A model generated the notes under the pieces. The model made no database searches, was not told where the DNA came from, and saw nothing but the letters and a program-made list of their open reading frames with translations. From assembly GCF_030013595.1 (NCBI RefSeq), contig NZ_CP122768.1: DNA of 64,000 nt, one strand, 5' to 3'. Shown in pieces: positions 9,158 to 52,417 of this stretch (positions within the stretch are counted from its first letter, which is position 1; every line of letters begins with the position of its first letter). Origin of the DNA: Escherichia coli. Its GTDB lineage: Bacteria; Pseudomonadota; Gammaproteobacteria; Enterobacterales; Enterobacteriaceae. Both the position numbers and the translations under genes were made by a program.

Positions 9158-9245
9158 GGAAGTGTGGCCGAGCGGTTGAAGGCACCGGTCTTGAAAACCG
9201 GCGACCCGAAAGGGTTCCAGAGTTCGAATCTCTGCGCTTCCGCCA
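9158..9245 (+). tRNA. serT: tRNA-Ser (anticodon UGA)
   Basis: 88-nt sequence GGAAGTGTGGCCGAGCGGTTGAAGGCACCGGTCTTGAAAACCGG...GAATCTCTGCGCTTCCGCCA with long variable arm and anticodon loop CTTGAAA; encoded CCA end. Confidence 0.92.
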
Positions 9246-37583: not shown

Positions 37584-40406
37584 ATGACGGCAAAGTACAT
37601 CAGGGACTGGCAACAACCGCGCCACGCAGTGGGGCGTGAAGGAACGGGGATCCCCGCTCCTGAATCCGCGCTTTCCTCCTGGCTGGATGCCTACCGGGCA
37701 GAGAACGAGCGCCGCCAGGAAATGGCTGATGCGGCGTTCTCCGCCACGCCGCTGGGCAACCTGATTAATAAAAGCCTGGACGCACAGGAAAAACAGGACA
37801 AAACCATCACACTGGCAGGAGACGCCAGAAAACAGGCACGCGGCGCGGTGGATGAAGCCATGGCCTCGCTGCGCCTGCTGCCGTCCTATCTGCGCGATCC
37901 GCTTATTCGCCACCTCTCCTTCCTGCGCAAAAAACAGGAAGCCGATCGTCAGAAAGGAAAAAACGCCAGGCAGGCAGAACGCTATGCGCGTGGGACCCTG
38001 CGCAAAATATTCGAACGTCTGGAGCGCACCGATCACCGCTGGCTGACACCGGGTTATCGCTCCCTTGCCGGACGCGAACGCCTGGACGATTTGCTTTACC
38101 TGCCGCAGCTCAACAAACACCAGATACAGACGCTGGCCACCATGACGGCGGCGATGTTCAGCAGCACCTTCGAAAAACTCTGCGATGGCTTTGGCGCGAC
38201 CGATGGCGAACTGACCATGGATGTAACGCTGAAGGCGTATCAGATGCTGGCCCGCATGGCGTTACACCTGCACATCATGCCTCCACATTATGACGCACTG
38301 ACAACAGACAAAGACCGGAGGAACGAACCGGACACGGAGCTGCTGCCGGGCGCAATCCTTCGCCTGACCTGTGCGGAATGGTGGAAACGCAAACTGTGGC
38401 TGTTACGTTGCGAGTGGCGGGAAGAACAACTCCGCGCCGCCTGTCTGGTTTCCAGAAAAACATCACCCTATCTGAGCCAGGACGCGTTAAGCGAGTTTCG
38501 CGCACACCGCGAGAAAACACGCGATTTCCTGAAAAGTTTCATGCTGGAAAATGAAGACGGGTTCACGATTGATCTCGAGACGGTGTATTACGCGGGAGTA
38601 AGTAACCCGGTTCACCGTAAGGCAGAAATGATGGCCACCATGAAGGGGCTGGAACTTCTGGCCGAAGCCCGTGGCGACAGAGCGGTGTTTCTGACTGTCA
38701 CCTGCCCGTCAAAATACCACGCAACAACGGAGAACGGTCATCCGAATCCCAAATGGAACGGGGCCACCATGCGCGACTCCAGCGATTACCTGGTTAACAC
38801 GTTTTTTGCGACGGTCCGCAAAAAACTGAACCGCGACGGTCTTCGCTGGTATGGCATCCGCACGGTGGAGCCTCACCATGACGGCACTGTGCACTGGCAT
38901 ATGATGGTCTTTGCACATCCGGACGAGATTGAAACCATCGTGTCCCACGTCTGCGATATTGCCATTCAGGAAGACCGCCACGAGCTGGGCGATGATATTA
39001 CTCCGCGTTTTAAAGCGGAGTACGTCGACGGCTCAAAAGGCACGCCAACCAGCTACATCGCCACCTACATCGGAAAGAACCTGGACAGCCGCGCCGTGGA
39101 TGGCATCGCCCCGAAAACGGGCAAGCCACGCGTTGACCACGAAACCGGAAAATCAATGGCCGAGAGCGTGGAGCGCGCCATCGGCTGGGCGCGCCTTCAC
39201 CGGGTCCGCCAGTTCCAGTTCTTTGGCATCCCCTCCCGTCAGGTGTGGCGTGAACTGCGCCGCCTTGCCAGCCAGATGGCACGCAACCCGGAAGGCCCGC
39301 AACGGCTGAAGGATGACGCAATGGATGCAGTGCTCGCTGCCGCTGATGCCGGGTGTTTTGCCTCCTACATTGAAAAACAGGGCGGCGTACTTGTTCCACG
39401 CCAGGACTACCTGATTCGCACCGCCTACGACCTCGCAGATGAGCTGAACGATTACGGCGAACAGAGCGTACAGATTTACGGGATCTGGTCACCACTCATC
39501 GGGGAGTCTTCCCGTGTGTGCACACATCCGGATAACTGGAAGCTGGTAAGACGTAAACCGGAAGCGGAAGACAGCGCCCGCGAAAATGGTTTTGACCTTC
39601 AGGGCGGCCCTGCCGCCCCTTGGACTCGTGGCAATAACTGTCCCCGTGTACAGGAAACGGACAACAACGGGACAGAACAGCCGGAAGAACGGCCAGCACC
39701 GTGGCCGCAGCTCCCTGACGGCGTTGAAGTGAACGAATGGATGCGCTCACTGAAACGGCACGAACGCCGGGCGCTGATGCGTTCGCTTCGTGACAAACAG
39801 GCAAAAAACAGCAGTGATGAAATGCAGAGCTGGACACAGAGCCGCAAACAGCAGCGGCCTTTGCCTGATAACCACGAATTACTCGCTAAAGAATGGCGGG
39901 AGTCTGCTGAATCTCTCGGCCTGCATATCGGTGAACAACAGATGCAGCACCTGTTACGGGGCGGCAGTCTGTACGTTGACGGCAGCATCATTGCACCGCA
40001 GGGATTTGAAATTGTACGCAAACCGGATACCCGCCCGGACAGCCGAATCACGCAGCTCTGGCAGCGCCTGAGCCGTAATCATGGCGTAAGCAGCACGGAG
40101 ATCCGCCATAACCCGGTCGCCAGCTATCTGGCACAGCTGGGGGCATCAGACCCTGAAGCCGCCGCACGCCTGGCATCCACACTTCAGCAGGACCAGAACA
40201 CCATGAAAACACCCGTTACCGTGCTTTCTGACATGCTGCGCGCCATCCGCGACGCAGAGCACGCACAGAGAATCAGTGAAACCACTGAACGCGCCAGCCG
40301 CAAAGCAGACCTGCTGCGGGGTGGCCTGACCAGTGGAAACAAAAAACAGACAGAAACGGGACTCACGAATCCCGCAAATGAGCAAAAAACGCGCAGCGAT
40401 ATATGA
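37584..40406 (+). CDS. A: replication initiation endonuclease, P2 gpA family (rolling-circle, HUH motif)
   Basis: 940-aa ORF with ...WYGIRTVEPHHDGTVHWHMMVF... HxH motif and ...YIATYIGKN... active-site Tyr region typical of P2/186 A proteins. Confidence 0.9.
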   Translation: MTAKYIRDWQQPRHAVGREGTGIPAPESALSSWLDAYRAENERRQEMADAAFSATPLGNLINKSLDAQEKQDKTITLAGDARKQARGAVDEAMASLRLLPSYLRDPLIRHLSFLRKKQEADRQKGKNARQAERYARGTLRKIFERLERTDHRWLTPGYRSLAGRERLDDLLYLPQLNKHQIQTLATMTAAMFSSTFEKLCDGFGATDGELTMDVTLKAYQMLARMALHLHIMPPHYDALTTDKDRRNEPDTELLPGAILRLTCAEWWKRKLWLLRCEWREEQLRAACLVSRKTSPYLSQDALSEFRAHREKTRDFLKSFMLENEDGFTIDLETVYYAGVSNPVHRKAEMMATMKGLELLAEARGDRAVFLTVTCPSKYHATTENGHPNPKWNGATMRDSSDYLVNTFFATVRKKLNRDGLRWYGIRTVEPHHDGTVHWHMMVFAHPDEIETIVSHVCDIAIQEDRHELGDDITPRFKAEYVDGSKGTPTSYIATYIGKNLDSRAVDGIAPKTGKPRVDHETGKSMAESVERAIGWARLHRVRQFQFFGIPSRQVWRELRRLASQMARNPEGPQRLKDDAMDAVLAAADAGCFASYIEKQGGVLVPRQDYLIRTAYDLADELNDYGEQSVQIYGIWSPLIGESSRVCTHPDNWKLVRRKPEAEDSARENGFDLQGGPAAPWTRGNNCPRVQETDNNGTEQPEERPAPWPQLPDGVEVNEWMRSLKRHERRALMRSLRDKQAKNSSDEMQSWTQSRKQQRPLPDNHELLAKEWRESAESLGLHIGEQQMQHLLRGGSLYVDGSIIAPQGFEIVRKPDTRPDSRITQLWQRLSRNHGVSSTEIRHNPVASYLAQLGASDPEAAARLASTLQQDQNTMKTPVTVLSDMLRAIRDAEHAQRISETTERASRKADLLRGGLTSGNKKQTETGLTNPANEQKTRSDI

Positions 40407-40451
40407 AGCGCGCACAAAACAGGCAAAAACGGGATTTCAGAATCCCGTAAA
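40354..40451. repeat. two 25-bp dyad-containing direct repeats straddling the A stop codon, upstream of the parM-like gene
   Basis: AAACGGGACTCACGAATCCCGCAAA (40354..40378) and AAACGGGATTTCAGAATCCCGTAAA (40427..40451); each contains CGGGA-N8-TCCCG; 73-bp centre-to-centre. Confidence 0.6.
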
Positions 40452-40482
40452 CGATTAATTAATCAACATAAGGAAAAGCGAC

Positions 40483-41442
40483 ATGAAAATTTGTATCGAC
40501 GACGGCTCCACCAACATCAAGCTGGCATGGACTGAGAACGGCGAACGCCGCAACGCCATCAGCCCGAACAGCTTCAAGTCGGAATGGTCTGCGCCGTTCG
40601 GCGGCACGCAGCCCGCGAACTACATGCTTGATGGCGTGCGCTATGGTTTTGATCCGGTCAGCGATCGCTTTGTCCAGACGACCGACACGCAATACCAGTA
40701 CAGCGATGTAAATGTCATTGCCATTCATCACGCGCTGGTCAAATCAGGCATCACGCCACAGGAGGTGGATGTGGTTGTCACCCTGCCACTGAGCGAGTAT
40801 TTCGACACAAACGCACAGCCGGACATGGCCAACATCAACCGCAAAAAAGCGAACGTTATGCGCCCGGTGGAGTACCAGAACGGCGAAGCATTCACTATCC
40901 GTAACGTGCGGGTTATGCCTGAATCCATTCCGGCTGGCTTTAAAGCACTGGCTGACATGAGTCCGTTTGAATCCCTGCTGATTGTGGATTTAGGTGGAAC
41001 CACGCTGGATGTGGCAAAGGTTCAGGGACAACTGGCAGGTATCAGCCAGGTGTTTTGCGATCCACACGTAGGCGTTTCCCTGATGGCCGATGCAGTACTG
41101 TCGGTGATGGCCACTAACGGTATGCGTACCAGTCACCACATCGCCAATACCATTATCGAACATCGCCATGATGAAGCCTGGCTGCGCCAGCACATCCACA
41201 ATGACGCGCATTACGCCAGCCTGATGGCGGTTATTCGTGAAAAGGAAGAAACACTGAAACAACGCGTGATCCGCGCGCTGGCGGGTTTTTCGGGTTACGG
41301 GCGGGTGATGGTTGTCGGTGGCGGGGCGGAGATTGTGGCACCCGCTATCCGCGAAGCCTGCGGAGTTAATGCGACTTTCATCGCGGACGGGGTGCCACAG
41401 TTTGCTCTGGTTAATGGGCTGTACGCAATGGACAAGGAGTAA
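40483..41442 (+). CDS. parM: ParM/StbA-family actin-like ATPase
   Basis: 319-aa ORF MKICIDDGSTNIKLAW...NSFKSEW...YSDVNVIAIHHAL...VMPESIPAG...IVDLGGTTLD...VVGGGAE...LVNG, alignable throughout with R1/R100 ParM/StbA. Confidence 0.85.
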   Translation: MKICIDDGSTNIKLAWTENGERRNAISPNSFKSEWSAPFGGTQPANYMLDGVRYGFDPVSDRFVQTTDTQYQYSDVNVIAIHHALVKSGITPQEVDVVVTLPLSEYFDTNAQPDMANINRKKANVMRPVEYQNGEAFTIRNVRVMPESIPAGFKALADMSPFESLLIVDLGGTTLDVAKVQGQLAGISQVFCDPHVGVSLMADAVLSVMATNGMRTSHHIANTIIEHRHDEAWLRQHIHNDAHYASLMAVIREKEETLKQRVIRALAGFSGYGRVMVVGGGAEIVAPAIREACGVNATFIADGVPQFALVNGLYAMDKE

Positions 41443-41446
41443 ACCA

Positions 41447-41758
41447 ATGACGACACCAACCAGACGGATAAGTTTCTATCTGAAGCCCGCCGCCGTCAAG
41501 AACGAAGGCGAAGCATGCGCCTGGCTGGACAGCCTTACACCAGAAGCCCGCAAAAGCGGCCAACGTGTGGCTTTTCTGGCCGGGCTGGCACTTCTGAAAA
41601 TGAATCCGGCAGAGGCTTACCGACTGGCTGCATGGGCTGACGATGAGGCGTTATCAGTGACACAAACCAGGACAGAACGCCCCGCGTCACAGCCAGTACC
41701 AACCACACAGATAACCAGTCGGATGGCCGGAAATATCAGGGCGTTATTTCCCGAATAA
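41447..41758 (+). CDS. parR: ParR/StbB-like adaptor protein (putative ribbon-helix-helix)
   Basis: 103-aa ORF MTTPTRRISFYLKPAAVKNEGEACAWLDSLTPEARKSGQRVAFLAGLALL...; AAGGAG 7 nt upstream, 4 bp after parM stop; N-terminal pattern resembles R1 ParR. Confidence 0.65.
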   Translation: MTTPTRRISFYLKPAAVKNEGEACAWLDSLTPEARKSGQRVAFLAGLALLKMNPAEAYRLAAWADDEALSVTQTRTERPASQPVPTTQITSRMAGNIRALFPE

Positions 41759-41786
41759 CACAACATCAGGGCGCATCCGCCCTGAT
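41735..41786. repeat. ATCAGGGCG direct repeat plus a 9-bp-stem hairpin at the parR 3' end
   Basis: ATCAGGGCG at 41735..41743 and 41765..41773; inverted copy CGCCCTGAT at 41778..41786 forms a hairpin with a CATC loop. Confidence 0.55.
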
Positions 41787-41821
41787 GACTTTAATCCGGG
41801 AACATAAACAAGGGGGACACA

Positions 41822-42154
41822 ATGCAACACATTGACAGAGAAAAAGCGCAGCGACTGATTGAGCGGATGGAAGCGCTGGCGAAAGAAGAAAATGTCAACA
41901 TCCAAAAAATAGCTGAATGTGGCCAGATAGTTCTTCGTCGTGAAAAAGACCTCAAACAACTGATGTCTGGCGAAACCAGCAAAACATGGACTTCAGGCGA
42001 GGAGACGATTTATTGCAGCTTCTGCAATAAATCTCAGTACGAAGTCACAAAGGTGATTGCCGGACCGTCTGTTTACATCTGCAATGAGTGCGTGGATTTG
42101 TGCAATGAAATTATCAGGAGAGAAGTGACAGACAAAAAGGGAAAAAACGCATGA
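41822..42154 (+). CDS. ClpX N-terminal zinc-binding-domain homolog with N-terminal coiled-coil extension
   Basis: 110-aa ORF; C-terminal ...[40 protein letters not shown] is near-identical in pattern to the E. coli ClpX Cys4 zinc-binding domain ([40 protein letters not shown]); AGGGGG RBS. Confidence 0.8.
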
Positions 42155-42489
42155 ACAGAAAACAAAAACAAGAGTTGAAATACTTTTTACGTAAAGAAAT
42201 TGCCAGGCTTGAAGATGCAGAATCACAATCATCAGAAATTCCGTTCGGAATGGATATCAACGACGCCCGTATGCTCCAGGCATACCGCATAGCTCAGGCT
42301 GCACTACAGGCAAAACCGTCAGATGGACTGGTTAGAGCAGTACGATTCTATGAACTGGTAAAGCGTGAGAATCCGCCAGCCGAAACCGGAGCATGGAAAG
42401 ACGCTGTTGACTGGGTACTCAAAGAGGCTTGTCAGGTTGTAAACACTGGCATCAAAGGAGACCTAGCCCAGCCTGCATCAAAGCTATAG
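42151..42489 (+). CDS. hypothetical protein translationally coupled to the ClpX-domain gene
   Basis: 112-aa [29 protein letters not shown]...; ATG overlaps the upstream stop (ATGA); followed by a strong terminator. Confidence 0.55.
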
Positions 42490-42498
42490 AAATGAGCC

Positions 42499-42526
42499 AA
42501 AACGCCCTCTTCCAGGGCGTTTATTT
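42499..42526 (+). terminator. rho-independent terminator closing the accessory island
   Basis: AAAACGCCCT-CTTCC-AGGGCGTTT followed by ATTTC. Confidence 0.75.
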
Positions 42527-42529
42527 CAA

Positions 42530-42669
42530 TGCACAATAGTGCACAAATTTGCACAATTTTTTTGAACGAATTTTTGCCCTTCCGGCCCGCGTGACAGTTG
42601 GATCCGTCAAGGATCCGTGCGTGCACAAAAAAACGCGCTTTTTCTGCGCGCAGGTGACGGGGGAACAGC
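42530..42669. other. candidate cos/packaging region of the P2-like phage
   Basis: Non-coding interval before portal Q where P2 has cos; three TGCACAA repeats at exact 10-bp phasing (42530, 42540, 42550) plus a fourth at 42622; GGATCCGT at 42600 and 42611; palindrome CTGCGCGCAG 42644..42653; GGTGACGGGGGAACAGC (42653..42669) loosely resembles the P2 cohesive end. Confidence 0.4.
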
Positions 42670-42980
42670 CCGCGTTTCAGGGGGTAAATAGCATTCCCTG
42701 AACGATGTCGCAGAGATACAACAGAATGGCTGTATTTCTCACGCTGAGCGTGAAAAAGATGTGAGGGCTTTTGATTTGATGGGGTGAAAGGTAAGGCCGT
42801 CAAAATCGCACTGAGGCGGCGAGAACATACAGTCAACGCGGTAGGATTGCGTAAGAGTCTGACCGTCGATGGTGGCGATAAACTGGAAGGCGTCGTGAAA
42901 TTATCTGATTGATACAGGAGCTGGAGAGTCGGGGCATAAATTTTTTATGCCCCGGCGAAGCAGCAGACAAGCGAAGCGCG

Positions 42981-44027
42981 TCAGGATGTGGGCTGGGTAT
43001 CTAACAGTGCGTAAGGGTTAAAGCGGATCACCTCTTCGCCAAGCCAGTCATTGATGTGCTTCATGGCCTCCATGACGGGCATCAGCTCGTTAATTGCGTA
43101 AACCCGCGCGGCCTTCTCCACATCACCAAACGCACTTTTTTCACCCGGCATCGCTCCCATCAGTTGCGGCGGAACGCGGTGCGCAGCCAGCACATCATCA
43201 CGGGATGCCGCCTTAACATTCATGAACTCATCCTTTGCGGTGATCTGCTGGAACGGCAAAATTTGCACACCTTCTTTGCCCCCGTTGGGCGCATGAATGA
43301 GCACGTTTTTAAATGCACCACCACCACGCGCACCCTGTAACGTTTCTTTCAGGGAGTCCATGCTTTCGCGGTTTACCTGCGCTGCACCGATGTAGATGAT
43401 GCACCCGGCGTGGGATCCGTTGTCGTAATACAGTTTTCTGAACATGTCCGCCGAATGAGACAGGCTGGCCGAGAGTAATGCGCCAAGATATTCCGGCATG
43501 CCGTAAATTTCCTGGTTAATGTCAGGATTCATCAGGTGACACACTTTGCCTGGGCGAAACTGAAACGCATCCTTGCCATCCTGCACATACCACCATGATT
43601 CAAGATCGCTTCCGCGTCGCATGTATTTCGCCAGGGCGTGCCGTAATTTAAGCGGTTCGCCGAGCATATTGCTTCGAAGCTCAAGGAATGCGTTACCGAA
43701 CACAAACCAGTCCAGCGCCAGCGCCGAGAAATCCTGCCGGGAAAGCAGCGGGTGCGGAATATAGCAGCCGAGCAATACATTGCGCTTAAAGTAAAGCGCA
43801 GACTGATGCCAGGACGTTTGCCGGGCAGCTCTTGCCAGACCGTACCAGTCTACCGGGGTTTCATACCACCGCCCGTTATCAGCACAGTACATATTGTCCA
43901 GCAGGTCATGCCCGGTCAGGCGATAAGGACCATCAAATGTGAATGCACTGAGCGATGATTCTTTCCTGAGCGCATCAGCGAGATCAATGCGTGAACTCAT
44001 GCGCACTTTTTTATTTTTTCTGCTCAT
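42981..44027 (-). CDS. Q: portal protein, P2 gpQ family
   Basis: 348-aa ORF, size and sequence pattern of P2 Q; leftward, upstream of terminase P. Confidence 0.9.
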   Translation of the reverse strand: MSRKNKKVRMSSRIDLADALRKESSLSAFTFDGPYRLTGHDLLDNMYCADNGRWYETPVDWYGLARAARQTSWHQSALYFKRNVLLGCYIPHPLLSRQDFSALALDWFVFGNAFLELRSNMLGEPLKLRHALAKYMRRGSDLESWWYVQDGKDAFQFRPGKVCHLMNPDINQEIYGMPEYLGALLSASLSHSADMFRKLYYDNGSHAGCIIYIGAAQVNRESMDSLKETLQGARGGGAFKNVLIHAPNGGKEGVQILPFQQITAKDEFMNVKAASRDDVLAAHRVPPQLMGAMPGEKSAFGDVEKAARVYAINELMPVMEAMKHINDWLGEEVIRFNPYALLDTQPTS

Positions 44028-45778
44028 CAGAACTCCATAACCGTGAAACGCTCGTTTTCTCCTTCGCCGCCAATTGGTTCGTTAATGACAGCAAGCATGG
44101 TTGCCCACGCAAGGTCGCCGTGGCTGATCCCCCTCGCGCGGTCCGTTTCGTAAGTGATAAAGCCGCCCGGTGTTTTCACCTTACGCACGGCGTTAAAGGC
44201 CGCGACCAGCTCGCGTTCGGCGCGATCGTATTCCCACCGTCCGGCACGCATTATTTGCAGCATTTTCAGTACCAGCGACCGTTTGGATGACAGCGTGAAG
44301 GTGTACGGAATAGCAGCAGGGAAAAACCGCTTCACTATCTGATAAACAGCCTCCCCGTTCCCGCCCGTCACATCAATGCCGATGTGTTCCACGTTGTAGC
44401 GACACGTGAACTCTTCAATGACTCTGGCCTGTTCTTCAAACTCCAGCCCCTGAACGCGTCGCGTCTCCACCGTTCGAAAACGGCCACCAGGAACAGCCGG
44501 AGGAACCACCACGGACACAGCGCCGCTGTCGCCGTTGCCACTGCTGCCGTTTGCGTCATACCCAATCCATACCGGACGATTCCCCATCGGGCGGGGAGCA
44601 AAAGGTTTCCAGTCTTTCCAGTCGTCGTATCCGTCAACACCGCAGCCAATCAGGATATTCAGGTTAAATGCCGATTCCCCTTCGCGAACAAACTCACACA
44701 TATAGAGATTGAGGAACTCGTCTTCGGTGTTTTCATCACGGATTTCGTCAATATCGGTGTGTTTCCAGCCGTGATTAACCACATCTTCCAGCGTGACAAT
44801 TTGCCGCCACGTCCGGTCAGGGCAGATAAGCCCGTTATGCAGCGTTTTCCAGTCCACAGAAAAACGCTGGCGTTTATGCGCGGCCTTTTTCTCGTTCCAG
44901 CGGTCGCCGTTCCAGTAGACGTATGCCTCGTGCGTTTCGGTTGATGGCGTGGAGAAGTAGGTGCGCCGCAGTCCGCTGAGGGTTGCCATAGCGCCAGCCA
45001 CCTTGCGCAGTTCAGCAAAGCGACTGACCCAGAAAAATTCATCAAAATAAAAATTGCCTGTGTAGGACTGTGCCGTCGCAGCAGAAGTACCGAGAAAATG
45101 CAGTTCTGCGCCGTTGGAGAGGATGATTTTATCGCCCCCTTTCAGCTCCACATCAACTTCAGCCGCGGCCTTCTGAATAATGCTTTTAAACTGGAACGCC
45201 TGACGACGCGACGCAGACAAAAAAATCTGGTTACGCTGGTAAGGTTGTGCCACATCGTCACGCAGCGCCATCAGCAGTGCTTCCTGTGCAAAATACCAGG
45301 TCGCCCCAATCTGTCGGGATTTCAGGATCATCCTGTTACGTATCCCGGCTTCACTGCAAAGGGTCAGGGAGTCAAACCAGCCCCGCTGATGCCACTCCAG
45401 CCTGCTGATGATTTTTTCCCGCAGTGCGGCAATCTGCTCCGGCGTGAAATGATTTTTAAGTTTTTTCGCCCGGCCTTTCTTTCCTGTGGCCGTCGCATCC
45501 GGCTGGCCATCATGCAGTTTTTTAAGCTGCCGGGTCAGCAGGTCTATTTCCTTAAAGTCACCACCTGTTTTATTCTGTTTTTCAGTAAGCTGGATGAGGC
45601 GCGCATCGATGGACTGCGTGACACGCTGCACGGGTGGCGTTTCATCCCACTGGTCGCGTTTTTTCCACGCATAAATCGTGTTCGGGTTTATTCCCATCAG
45701 ACGTGATATTTCTGCGGGCGGATAACCCTGCCAGTAAAGTTGCCGCGCACGCTGGCGCACAAAAGCGTCCTGAATCAT
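44027..45778 (-). CDS. P: terminase large (ATPase) subunit, P2 gpP family
   Basis: 583-aa ORF with ...LKSRQIGATWYFAQEAL... Walker A-like and nuclease-domain acidic residues. Confidence 0.92.
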   Translation of the reverse strand: MIQDAFVRQRARQLYWQGYPPAEISRLMGINPNTIYAWKKRDQWDETPPVQRVTQSIDARLIQLTEKQNKTGGDFKEIDLLTRQLKKLHDGQPDATATGKKGRAKKLKNHFTPEQIAALREKIISRLEWHQRGWFDSLTLCSEAGIRNRMILKSRQIGATWYFAQEALLMALRDDVAQPYQRNQIFLSASRRQAFQFKSIIQKAAAEVDVELKGGDKIILSNGAELHFLGTSAATAQSYTGNFYFDEFFWVSRFAELRKVAGAMATLSGLRRTYFSTPSTETHEAYVYWNGDRWNEKKAAHKRQRFSVDWKTLHNGLICPDRTWRQIVTLEDVVNHGWKHTDIDEIRDENTEDEFLNLYMCEFVREGESAFNLNILIGCGVDGYDDWKDWKPFAPRPMGNRPVWIGYDANGSSGNGDSGAVSVVVPPAVPGGRFRTVETRRVQGLEFEEQARVIEEFTCRYNVEHIGIDVTGGNGEAVYQIVKRFFPAAIPYTFTLSSKRSLVLKMLQIMRAGRWEYDRAERELVAAFNAVRKVKTPGGFITYETDRARGISHGDLAWATMLAVINEPIGGEGENERFTVMEF

Positions 45779-51211: not shown

Positions 51212-51839
51212 GGCATTCACCCGCGTGGATGAAACCTTTGAGGCCATCCGCGACAGCCTGAATCAGCAGGCCATCAATAACATCGCCAGAAAGCTGGCAC
51301 AGGATTTACGCCGCGCCCAGCAGGCGCGTATCCGGTCACAGAAAGCGCCGGACGGGACCGCGTGGACACCACGCAGACGCCGCGTAACCCGGATACAGGA
51401 GCGCATTCGCTTTATCTGGAATAACGAAGCACGCACGCTGAAAAACTGGCATCACGACACGGGGAAATACGGGCGAACCATTACCGGGTGGGATGAGGAT
51501 AAAAACAATATCCGCACGTTTTACCGGGATGACATCGACCGTTTTCTGGAAATACGCACCCGGCGCATCAACCAGGACAGCACAAAGCGCGTCCCCATGT
51601 TCGTAAAACTGCGCACCGCCCGCTACCTGAAAGCCCGTGCAGATGCTTCCGGTGTGACGGTGGGTTACAGCGGCGTGGCCGCACGTATTGCCCGCGTTCA
51701 TCAGTTCGGTGAGCGCGATCAGGTTGCGCCGGGCATTTTCACCGATTACCCGGTACGTGAGCTGCTGGGTATCAGCCAGGCAGATGAGCGCCTGATTTAT
51801 AACACGGTGCTGGGCCGGATTGCGGAGGCTGTACGGTGA
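51195..51839 (+). CDS. S: tail completion/virion morphogenesis protein, P2 gpS-like
   Basis: 214-aa ORF between R and V; longer than P2 S, assignment by position. Confidence 0.7.
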   Translation: MKAMDKAFTRVDETFEAIRDSLNQQAINNIARKLAQDLRRAQQARIRSQKAPDGTAWTPRRRRVTRIQERIRFIWNNEARTLKNWHHDTGKYGRTITGWDEDKNNIRTFYRDDIDRFLEIRTRRINQDSTKRVPMFVKLRTARYLKARADASGVTVGYSGVAARIARVHQFGERDQVAPGIFTDYPVRELLGISQADERLIYNTVLGRIAEAVR

Positions 51840-52417
51840 GCGCAGAACTCATGCGACTGCTGAGCAATATCATCCGCACCGGGATCATCTCTGAAGTTGA
51901 TGAGAAGTCCTGGCGCGTGCGCGTTCGCAGCGGCGAACTGGAAACAGGCTGGTTGCGCTGGAACACCACGCGCGCGGGAGCCTTCAATGTATGGCTGCCG
52001 CCATCACCAGGCGAACAGGTGGTAATTGCCTGCATTGGCGGCAACCCGGAAACCGCCATGATAATTGGCAGCCTGTGGAGTGATGCCAGTCCGGCCCCCG
52101 GCAAAAGCCTGAAAGAAATCGTGGTCAGCGCGCCGGATGGCGCGGCGTTCCGCTACGACGCAGACGCTGGCGCACTGAGCGCCAGCGGCATGAAAACAGC
52201 CACCCTGCAGGCATCCGTCAGCGTGACACTGGATACGCCCGTCGTGGAATGCACAAACCTTCTGAGAACAGCGACGCTTGACGTCACAAAAGGGGGAAAG
52301 ATGAGCGGCAATATCACGCACAGCGGCGGCGATTTCACCTCAAACGGCATCACAGTGCATACGCATAAGCACGGTGGCGTTAAAGGTGGCAGCGATTCGA
52401 CAGGAGGCCCGCAGTGA
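51836..52417 (+). CDS. V: baseplate spike protein, P2 gpV family
   Basis: 193-aa ORF with OB-fold-like N-terminus and Gly-rich C-terminal tip region. Confidence 0.88.
   Translation: MSAELMRLLSNIIRTGIISEVDEKSWRVRVRSGELETGWLRWNTTRAGAFNVWLPPSPGEQVVIACIGGNPETAMIIGSLWSDASPAPGKSLKEIVVSAPDGAAFRYDADAGALSASGMKTATLQASVSVTLDTPVVECTNLLRTATLDVTKGGKMSGNITHSGGDFTSNGITVHTHKHGGVKGGSDSTGGPQ

Follow-up and report, generated by a model that had tools for sequence, protein, structure and literature searches.

Small phage proteins such as T4 PinA, T7 Gp4.5 (Lon) and lambda RexB alter ATP-dependent proteolysis in the host and protect phage or antitoxin proteins. These proteins act on other proteases or have folds unrelated to that of the protein described here, and none is known to copy a domain of a protease. 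ClpXP controls sigma-S, SOS proteins, antitoxins (Phd), initiators (lambda O) and Mu transposition, so a phage-borne modulator of this enzyme could have broad effects. The docking platform of ClpX is the zinc-binding domain at its N-terminus (ZBD; 1OVX, 2DS5-2DS8; PF06689), a Cys4 treble-clef with a hydrophobic patch, F16/I46, to which lambda O, TF, SspB and RssB bind (PMC7804408). When supplied in trans in vitro, the isolated E. coli ZBD competes for RssB, blocks delivery of sigma-S and thereby inhibits RssB-mediated sigma-S degradation by ClpXP (PMC7226468, Fig. 1d); these experiments used a large excess of the domain, 5–20 μM compared to 0.6 μM ClpXP (PMC7226468). The anti-adaptors IraP, IraM and IraD are also small proteins; they keep an adaptor from delivering a ClpXP substrate and so stabilize the substrate, and a common site on RssB has been proposed for IraD and the ZBD (PMC7226468). 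However, each anti-adaptor binds the adaptor with a fold of its own rather than with a copy of a protease domain, and we detected no relationship in sequence or fold between them and the protein studied here. Free ZBDs are also encoded in the early regions of other phages, beside replication genes. Pseudomonas phage PP9W2 has a 65-aa ZBD-only ‘Clp protease’ (PHROG 12435) in its nin region, just 3' of the replication genes, and the Klebsiella lambdoid phage ST846-OXA48phi9.2 has an unannotated 73-aa ZBD-only ORF just before an O-like gene. Our literature search returned no study that mentions stand-alone ZBD proteins of phages.

The window analyzed here, a 64-kb stretch of E. coli DNA, carries a P88-like (Peduoviridae) prophage in which a gene for a stand-alone ClpX-type ZBD protein (ORF-A) and a second small gene (ORF-B) form a cassette (Table 1). 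The cassette lies in the variable hotspot between gpA and gpQ of this P2-like prophage, where the order is A, parM, parR, ORF-A, ORF-B, the cos region and Q, and ORF-A runs in the direction of the replication gene (A) and of parMR. With a GC content of 44–45%, compared to ~55% on either side, the cassette stands out as acquired cargo. In P2, the same slot holds orf91, which, like ORF-A and ORF-B here, comes after gene A and shares its strand. The P2 old and tin genes, cargo of this hotspot as well, are by contrast antisense exclusion genes expressed in the lysogen, and ORF-A and ORF-B are arranged otherwise. Neither orf91 nor old/tin is homologous to ORF-A or ORF-B.

Table 1. Positions of the genes, protein segments and flanking signals of the ORF-A/ORF-B cassette in the window.
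Feature	Position	Strand	Basis or remark
Stable hairpin	41764..41787	+	10-bp perfect inverted repeat; RNA fold -18.4 kcal/mol, z -4.7
Shine-Dalgarno-like AAGGGGG	41810..41816	+	Read from sequence; 5 nt 5' of the ORF-A ATG
ORF-A, 110 aa, stand-alone ClpX ZBD protein	41822..42154	+	PHROG 6797; P88 gp19
Predicted N-domain helical hairpin, residues 1-48, family-specific	41822..41965	+	AlphaFold
Predicted disordered Ser/Thr/Gly-rich linker, residues 49-61	41966..42004	+	AlphaFold, alignment
ClpX-type Cys4 ZBD, residues 62-102	42005..42127	+	PF06689, 1OVX/2DS5, model superposition
ORF-B, 112 aa, mosaic ‘ea-type’ prophage protein	42151..42489	+	PHROGs 26213/660; start overlaps ORF-A stop (ATGA)
Near-invariant 48-aa C-terminal module of ORF-B	42319..42462	+	32 columns invariant across 24 diverse homologues
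Terminator-like hairpin	42499..42527	+	RNA fold -14.8 kcal/mol, z -3.5; directly 3' of ORF-B

Both reading frames exist as the preliminary description had claimed, with the stop codon of ORF-A and the start codon of ORF-B sharing an ATGA at 42151-42154. ORF-A is a real gene, and its product is 100% identical to phage P88 gp19. The protein matches phrog_6797 over its full length (residues 1-106, N-terminal hairpin included; E 1.5e-58) and carries the RefSeq name ‘ClpX C4-type zinc finger protein’; the family has already been catalogued. The ClpX Cys4 domain that had been assigned to the C-terminus was confirmed by a significant profile match to Pfam zf-C4_ClpX (PF06689; i-E 8.9e-18, residues 64-99) and by matches to the E. 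coli ClpX ZBD structures 1OVX and 2DS5 (E 2e-19 to 6e-19). The two ZBDs are ~78% identical (30 of 38 core residues, 79%), and the ZBD of the AlphaFold model of ORF-A, a predicted structure, superposes on 2DS5_A with an rmsd of 0.6 Å (TM(target) 0.89, 75% identity). All four zinc-ligating cysteines (C65, C68, C87 and C90) are present in ORF-A with CxxC...CxxC spacing and are invariant across the family. The F16/I46 ligand patch of ClpX is identical in ORF-A and is kept among its relatives, with F67 in 16 of 16 members and position 97 being I in 13 members and V in the other 3; the hydrophobic residues of the ZBD core are conserved as well. Unlike its N-terminal counterpart in ClpX, the ORF-A ZBD has no AAA+ ring joined to it and sits at the C-terminus, behind a family-specific hairpin, in the product of a phage accessory gene. 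The lack of an AAA+ module had also been noted earlier, and we found no AAA Pfam domain in ORF-A. The NCBIfam ClpX models TIGR00382 and NF003745 aligned to it over model positions 3-52 only, and their scores of 50.2 and 48.7 bits were far below the cut-offs of 370.75 and 359, placing ORF-A outside the ClpX unfoldases. In fold searches with ORF-A against the PDB and BFVD, the ZBD was the sole match.

The preliminary description had assigned a coiled coil of ~70 residues to the N-terminus of ORF-A. The AlphaFold model instead contains a helical hairpin of 48 residues (helices 6-22 and 27-48, pLDDT ~90), followed by a disordered linker of ~12 residues in which pLDDT falls below 50 at residues 54-59 and in which alignment indels reveal variable length across the family. 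The hairpin had no fold match in the PDB or BFVD. A profile search with the N-domain against 1.84 billion representatives gave 20 matches at E≤0.001, made up of the family clusters described below and of weak hits, partial in extent, to long proteins of unrelated appearance. The C-terminal ZBD accompanies the N-domain in every intact member of the family. One member (L008) is a chimera whose N-domain resembles that of phage D6 (80% nucleotide identity) and whose ZBD resembles that of the window (87% nucleotide identity). Together with the constant architecture of the family, this sequence pattern suggests that ORF-A consists of two separable functional modules.

The ORF-A family is small, comprising about a dozen clusters at 50% identity, and all of its members come from enterobacterial temperate phages. 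ORF-A itself is present in 111 of 5426 complete E. coli genomes (~2%), among them pathogenic lineages such as O145, ST131 and UTI89. The ZBDs of the family are 54–87% identical to that of E. coli ClpX, mostly 67–87%, and 44–87% identical among themselves, and in most members the ZBD is at least as near to E. coli ClpX as to most family relatives. Across subgroups, the N-domains are only 20–44% identical. Comparison of ORF-A with E. coli clpX gave a pS of 0.99, at which synonymous sites are saturated, and a pN of 0.18, showing that the similarity to ClpX has been held by purifying selection rather than reflecting recent copying. We rejected recent capture from the host clpX gene both on this saturation and on a megablast search, in which ORF-A matched the 111 genomes and never clpX.

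A scan for promoters detected no sigma-70-like site upstream of ORF-A, including the gap between parR and ORF-A, and the sole site lay within ORF-B. By eye, we saw no LexA box upstream of ORF-A, and no RNA family turned up when 40300-43100 was scanned with Rfam at E≤1. The hairpin between the end of the partition gene (41758) and ORF-A was called by a terminator scan on the minus strand only; because the plus strand lacks a T-run, this hairpin is probably an inefficient terminator of rightward transcription. The hairpin after ORF-B has the stem AACGCCCU/AGGGCGUU followed by UAUUU, a weak T tail that falls short of the T-run rule of the scan, and probably marks the end of the rightward transcription unit. 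ORF-A shares the strand of gene A and parMR and lacks a separate recognizable promoter. We infer from this arrangement that it is probably transcribed as the last part of the early (or parMR) message.

ORF-B had been described as lacking a recognizable family and as a coupled, stoichiometric partner of ORF-A. The first claim was incorrect, and our data do not support a dedicated partner. PHROGs 26213 and 660 match ORF-B at E ~1e-28, placing it in a large, mosaic family of prophage genes, and it has 591 database relatives; there was no Pfam match even at E≤10 and none in PDB-sequence or NCBIfam searches. It lies outside the Ead_Ea22 family (PF13935); what it has in common with some proteins that carry PF13935 (P0219, P0238) is limited to its C-terminal module of 48 aa. 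This module is ~88–95% identical in DNA sequence to lambdoid, P22-like and phage-plasmid genes, its DNA matches in unrelated phages adjoin Eae/Ea22 and are also found in ~700 E. coli genomes, and it is joined to many other N-termini, Ead_Ea22 among them. If ORF-A and ORF-B acted as two components held at fixed stoichiometry by translational coupling, the ATGA overlap would be expected. In agreement with such a system, an ORF-B-type gene is directly downstream in 71 of the 111 E. coli genomes with this ORF-A allele, and the overlapping arrangement recurs in PhiR44_2 and plasmid pCREC455-3. However, no diverged ORF-A homologue retains ORF-B, and homologues at 44–54% identity have other neighbours or none, so the pair is not an obligate operon. 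In Salmonella P2-like prophages, the homologues are singletons with a convergent neighbour; at L008, the downstream genes are unrelated; in phages D6 and PhiR41_1, the homologue lies within Ea22/Eae/EaA arrays; and elsewhere a close allele stands beside a Phd/Doc module. Conversely, ParM::ORF-B deletion chimeras without ORF-A are frequent (P0133, 143 contigs), and of the 5426 complete E. coli genomes, 706 have ORF-B-type sequence, 111 have ORF-A and 71 have both as an A+B unit, making the ORF-B module ~6-fold as widespread as ORF-A. These distributions largely refute a two-component system, which we regard as highly improbable, and establish that ORF-A is independent of ORF-B. ORF-B is a separate, freely recombining ‘ea-type’ gene packed against ORF-A by chance. 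The ATGA overlap is the normal packing of such accessory-gene arrays and, within them, is not evidence for a two-component system. A strict tie of ORF-A to plasmid partition (ParMR) was also rejected, as the Salmonella prophages and L008 have ORF-A homologues without ParM.

Our analysis leads us to propose, tentatively, that ORF-A is an autonomous accessory protein and most likely acts as a soluble competitor for docking at host ClpX. Its ZBD would form dimers like those of the ClpX N-domain and would bind the ligands that dock there, including the SspB XB tail, RssB and substrates like lambda O or MuA that depend on the ZBD, and a smaller fraction of ORF-A might pair with newly made ClpX N-domains. 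AlphaFold modeling of an ORF-A homodimer fused by a (GGGGS)6 linker, aimed at dimerization and at the packing of the hairpin, gave a low-confidence prediction (mean pLDDT 60, pTM 0.41) that lends dimerization no support. Competition would selectively inhibit adaptor- or ZBD-dependent degradation or remodeling by ClpXP and leave direct (ssrA-type) degradation intact, and the fast-evolving N-domain may add a second, lineage-specific contact. Inhibition of sigma-S degradation by the isolated ClpX ZBD provides a direct biochemical precedent for this mechanism. That ZBD was a laboratory construct present at large molar excess, whereas ORF-A is a natural gene product with an extra domain and a proposed activity, and to be effective in vivo the protein would have to be highly expressed or be aided by its N-domain. 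Two further observations support a competitor. Other phages carry independent ZBD-only genes, those of PP9W2 and the Klebsiella lambdoid phage, whose products lack the N-terminal hairpin and belong to a different family from ORF-A. ORF-A is also co-oriented with gene A, whereas old/tin in P2 and Phd/Doc in a C3-type locus are antisense. Counting against a competitor, no protein of the P2 family is, to our knowledge, an established ZBD-dependent substrate of ClpXP. The competitor hypothesis is cheap to check because assays exist for SspB, RssB and lambda O.

The ZBD is a small domain, however, and a generic dimerizing zinc ribbon would be conserved as well. It is conceivable, if unlikely, that the ZBD serves solely as a structural zinc ribbon for dimerization and that what ORF-A does has nothing to do with ClpX; it might, for instance, be a small regulator or inhibit another host or phage protein through its N-domain. 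Treble clefs and zinc ribbons are frequently redeployed, the N-domain is itself conserved, ORF-A is linked to ClpX by sequence and a predicted structure, and 136-aa Actinobacterial proteins that combine a ZBD with an HTH-like C-terminus demonstrate that ZBDs do exist in other architectures. Yet a purely structural role would require neither the retention of ClpX-specific surface residues, including the F16/I46 patch, nor ZBDs that are for the most part as near or nearer to host ClpX than to other family members, and the 79% amino-acid identity persists despite saturated synonymous sites. The same proximity to ClpX would be expected if pairing with ClpX were required, as in a hijacking adaptor whose ZBD pairs with the ClpX N-domain or docks on the ring and whose hairpin recruits a target for degradation by ClpXP. 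Such an adaptor would redirect the protease rather than block it, and it could act on proteins of the host or of a competitor, on repressors or on components of defence. A constant ClpX-like ZBD joined to a fast-diverging, recombining N-domain is the pattern of docking and specificity modules, and the flexible linker resembles adaptor tethers, but ClpX ZBD dimers form inside one hexamer and the N-domain is merely a two-helix hairpin for which we detected no relatives outside the family, and we consider hijacking improbable. We are just as doubtful of repeated capture of the ClpX docking domain by temperate phages and of its fusion, in this family, to a fast-evolving targeting hairpin to give a specificity subunit that pairs with the ClpX N-domain and redirects or selectively blinds ClpXP. 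ORF-A would then do in nature what engineered tools for targeted degradation do, with defence, addiction (Phd/Doc-type) or replication proteins as its targets.

Even less probable, in our estimation, is a role in exclusion, in which ORF-A expressed from the lysogen would block superinfecting phages that need the ClpX N-domain, such as those of the Mu type, in which ClpX remodels the MuA transpososome. Growth of Mu depends on ClpX, and recognition of MuA is assisted by the ZBD, both of which would fit such a role, as would the acquired-cargo GC content of the cassette and its location in a hotspot rich in anti-phage systems. The combination ‘StbA + Plasmid_stab_B + zf-C4_ClpX + hypothetical’ has been listed for the gpA-gpQ hotspot (PMC9122126 Table S5A), but this arrangement is absent from the table of systems evaluated for defence in the same study (PMC9122126). 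A PADLOC scan of ORF-A, ORF-B, ParM and ParR found nothing significant; ORF-A had no match, and ORF-B matched PDC-M28C at E 0.013. ORF-A is, moreover, co-oriented with the early operon and has no promoter-like site before it, whereas the lysogen-expressed cargo genes old/tin and Phd/Doc are antisense and have their own promoter. The D6 and PhiR41_1 homologues lie in arrays of an early type, and the company of a Mom-like (anti-restriction-type) gene in PhiR44_2 likewise argues against exclusion.

If ORF-A titrates the ClpX docking domain or pairs with it, it would be the first natural virus copy of a protease adaptor platform that rewires regulated proteolysis. Possible effects extend to the stress physiology of lysogens, plasmid and prophage addiction, the outcome of superinfection and defence based on toxin–antitoxin systems.

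Separately, in 18 E. coli genomes a close allele of ORF-A, without ORF-B, lies beside a convergent Phd/Doc module on the opposite strand, an adjacency that offers a lead to a functional link and nothing firmer.

Residues 64–99 of ORF-A match Pfam zf-C4_ClpX (8.9e-18), and its C-terminal 40 residues match the zinc-binding domain (ZBD) chains of E. coli ClpX, 1OVX/2DS5 (2e-19), bearing out both the ClpX-like C-terminal segment quoted in the preliminary description and the significance of the zinc-finger similarity in a profile search. The absence of an AAA+ module, also claimed there, was confirmed: NCBIfam ClpX models aligned through no more than their initial ~50 positions and scored 50 bits, compared to cut-offs of ~360–370, and thus ORF-A is a ZBD that lacks the AAA+ engine. 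Modelled with AlphaFold from an alignment of 17 family sequences (mean pLDDT 82.9), ORF-A shows an N-terminal helical hairpin (helices 6–22 and 27–48; pLDDT ~90), a disordered linker (pLDDT <50 at residues 54–59), and a ZBD that superimposes on 2DS5 at 0.6 Å. The N-terminus previously described as a coiled coil of ~70 residues is instead predicted to be a 48-residue hairpin plus linker.

Genes and signals around ORF-A (window coordinates)
Feature	Coordinates	Length	Orientation or position
gpA-type replication endonuclease	37584–40406		upstream of ParM
ParM	40483–41442		
ParR-like partition protein	end 41758		directly before ORF-A
ORF-A Shine-Dalgarno (AAGGGGG, good)			5 nt upstream of ORF-A
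ORF-A	41822–42154	110 aa	co-directional with ORF-B
ORF-B	42151–42489	112 aa	co-directional with ORF-A
Portal Q	42981–44027		convergent to ORF-A/B
Terminase P	44027–45778		convergent to ORF-A/B

Across 38 core codons, comparison of ORF-A with E. coli clpX gave pN 0.18 and pS 0.99, and megablast with ORF-A never matched clpX. These results rule out a recent copy of host clpX as the source of the ZBD and show that its likeness to ClpX is maintained by purifying selection. The family ZBDs are 54–87% (mostly 67–87%) identical to that of E. coli ClpX but only 44–87% identical to one another, and for most members the ClpX ZBD is at least as close as the ZBDs of most of their own relatives; N-domain identity (residues 1–48) across subgroups falls to 20–44%. 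F67 is invariant in all family members and position 97 is I or V (I97 in ORF-A); these residues are the counterparts of F16 and I46 of ClpX, whose hydrophobic region binds lambda O, trigger factor, SspB, and RssB (PMC7804408). One homologue (locus L008, 6001–6333) is an intragenic chimera, with an N-domain 80% identical in nucleotides to that of the P1-like phage-plasmid D6, a ZBD 87% identical to that of the window, and the recombination junction in the linker; the N-domain and ZBD therefore appear to behave as separable modules. Within ORF-A, at the Y-C-S-F-C-N-K codons, is an inverted repeat (42007–42033; −15.1 kcal/mol as RNA, z −5.1) with perfect 12-bp arms and a 3-nt loop, which also occurs in close alleles and in phage PhiR41_1; because it is missing from L008, L010, and D6, it is probably a by-product of symmetric codons.

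Close relatives of ORF-A were confined to Escherichia and Salmonella in a word-indexed search, in which thousands of genuine ClpX N-termini came next. An N-domain-only profile searched against 1.84 billion representative proteins (E ≤ 0.001) gave 20 matches, consisting of about a dozen family clusters and a few long, unrelated-looking proteins that matched weakly and in part. A C-terminal CxxC...CxxC ZBD was present in all intact family members, and thus the hairpin–ZBD architecture defines a small, coherent family (PHROG 6797). Members occur in P2-like prophages, in the slot between gpA and gpQ, whether or not ParMR is there too; in D6; and in the ~108-kb phages PhiR41_1 and CMS-2020a, amid Eae/Ea22/EaA-type early accessory gene arrays. 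Of 5426 complete E. coli genomes, 111 carry the allele seen in the window. Phage records (P88 gp19, D6 gp034) and many older genome records misname the family 'carboxylate-amine ligase'; the current RefSeq name in E. coli is 'ClpX C4-type zinc finger protein'. The ZBD is textbook knowledge, the family already has names in RefSeq and PHROGs, and a published supplement lists the locus; a literature search for phage stand-alone ZBDs found no paper.

The stretch bearing ORF-A shares 98.6% identity with Escherichia phage P88 (Peduoviridae, Xuanwuvirus), in which gp19 (L001, 6423–6755) is the counterpart of ORF-A. Different cargo fills the interval between partition gene and portal in related Xuanwuviruses, and this slot is the gpA–gpQ hotspot of Rousset et al., 2022 (PMC9122126). 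Table S5A of that study includes 'StbA + Plasmid_stab_B + zf-C4_ClpX + hypothetical', an arrangement absent from its table of systems evaluated for defence. The GC content of the cassette (44–45%, versus ~55% in the flanks) is consistent with acquired cargo. Two 42-nt direct repeats (40340–40381 and 40413–40454; 79% identical), each containing the palindrome ACGGGA-N8-TCCCG, span the end of gene A and the leader of parM and are a candidate parC-like centromere/operator of the ParMR system. Elsewhere in the window, an ARAGORN call of tRNA-Leu(CAG) (52123–52212, minus strand) among the late genes of the P2-like prophage overlaps a plus-strand ORF (51836–52417) and may be a false positive; tRNA-Ser(TGA) (9158–9245) is followed to ~32300 by an extended minus-strand ORF block (with ORFs of 1165, 853, and 828 aa among others), which resembles another prophage, of a different kind, lying upstream of the P88-like one.

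ORF-A and ORF-B share an ATGA stop/start overlap, as the preliminary description had read, but stop/start overlap is the usual packing in these accessory arrays. ORF-B, said to have no recognisable family, has 591 relatives with a common, near-invariant 48-aa C-terminal module (42319–42462; 32 invariant columns in an alignment of 24 diverse sequences) attached to highly dissimilar N-termini, Ead_Ea22 domains and ParM fragments among them. At DNA level the module hardly varies between unrelated temperate phages, with 88–95% identity in the genomes of lambdoid phages, P22-like phages, and phage-plasmids, in which Eae/Ea22 genes adjoin it. Neighbours of ORF-A homologues vary: in Salmonella the homologue stands alone beside a convergent gene, unrelated genes follow the L008 homologue, a convergent Phd/Doc module follows in 18 genomes (strain C3 and 17 more), and the neighbours in D6 and PhiR41_1 are different again. 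Among E. coli genomes, 706 have ORF-B-type sequence and only 71 the A+B unit. The proposal of a coupled two-gene system is contradicted by this distribution and largely refuted; thus, ORF-B is an independent mosaic gene rather than a partner of ORF-A. A frequent chimera (P0133 among P0131–P0136; 191 aa, 143 contigs) fuses the first ~110 ParM residues to the second half of ORF-B, which implies recurrent deletion of parM-3′, parR, ORF-A, and ORF-B-5′. In a cassette variant (PhiR44_2, L007 2569–3060; pCREC455-3, L019 4647–5138), ORF-A and a 104-aa ORF-B precede a Mom-like/XF1762-family DNA-modification gene; in one of the two, a 129-kb plasmid carries the whole P88-like element.

Supplied in trans, the isolated ZBD of E. 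coli ClpX inhibits the degradation of sigma-S by ClpXP that depends on RssB, and ZBD deletion abolishes adaptor-dependent but not ssrA degradation (PMC7226468). Given this inhibition and the same ligand patch in a naturally free ZBD, ORF-A would, by analogy, most simply compete for ZBD ligands; it might also pair with ClpX's own N-domain. The observation is solid and biochemical precedent exists for the predicted role, that of a phage modulator of host proteolysis that copies the protease's docking domain. The pattern of constant ZBD and variable N-domain also fits a hijacking adaptor whose hairpin brings targets to ClpXP, although heterodimerisation with the ClpX N-domain would then be required, and the zinc ribbon may have a role unrelated to ClpX.

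An exclusion gene made in the lysogen, for example against Mu, would fit the hotspot location, but the orientation of ORF-A and the PADLOC result are contrary. ORF-A/B share the orientation of gene A and parMR. In P2, orf91 is co-oriented in the same way and forms the tail of the early operon, whereas old and tin, which serve in exclusion, lie antisense and have a promoter of their own, and Phd/Doc of the C3-type locus is likewise antisense. A promoter scan found no sigma-70-like site upstream of ORF-A; a hairpin between the partition gene and ORF-A (41764–41787; −18.4 kcal/mol) has no T-run on the ORF-A strand, and a terminator-like hairpin follows ORF-B. From these features and comparisons, we infer that expression is probably early-lytic, or parMR-driven, rather than that of a classical lysogenic-conversion unit.

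Other phages also carry independent stand-alone ZBD genes. In Pseudomonas phage PP9W2 (L023, 3495–3692), a 65-aa ZBD-only protein of an independent family (PHROG 12435), annotated 'Clp protease', is encoded in a nin-like region, where its gene comes immediately behind the replication (O/P-like) genes and one for a DksA/TraR-type zinc finger. The Klebsiella lambdoid phage ST846-OXA48phi9.2 (MK416022; L016, 4001–4222) has an unannotated 73-aa ZBD-only ORF between cII and an O-like replication gene, just before the latter; the record annotates a 51-aa opposite-strand ORF in its place. This position beside replication genes fits the lambda-O paradigm as a hint only and does not amount to evidence of function. 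In P88-like prophages of the C3 type (L018, 3501–4754), the ClpX-ZBD gene precedes the Phd/Doc toxin–antitoxin module; as ClpXP is known to degrade P1 Phd, this adjacency offers a lead to a possible target.
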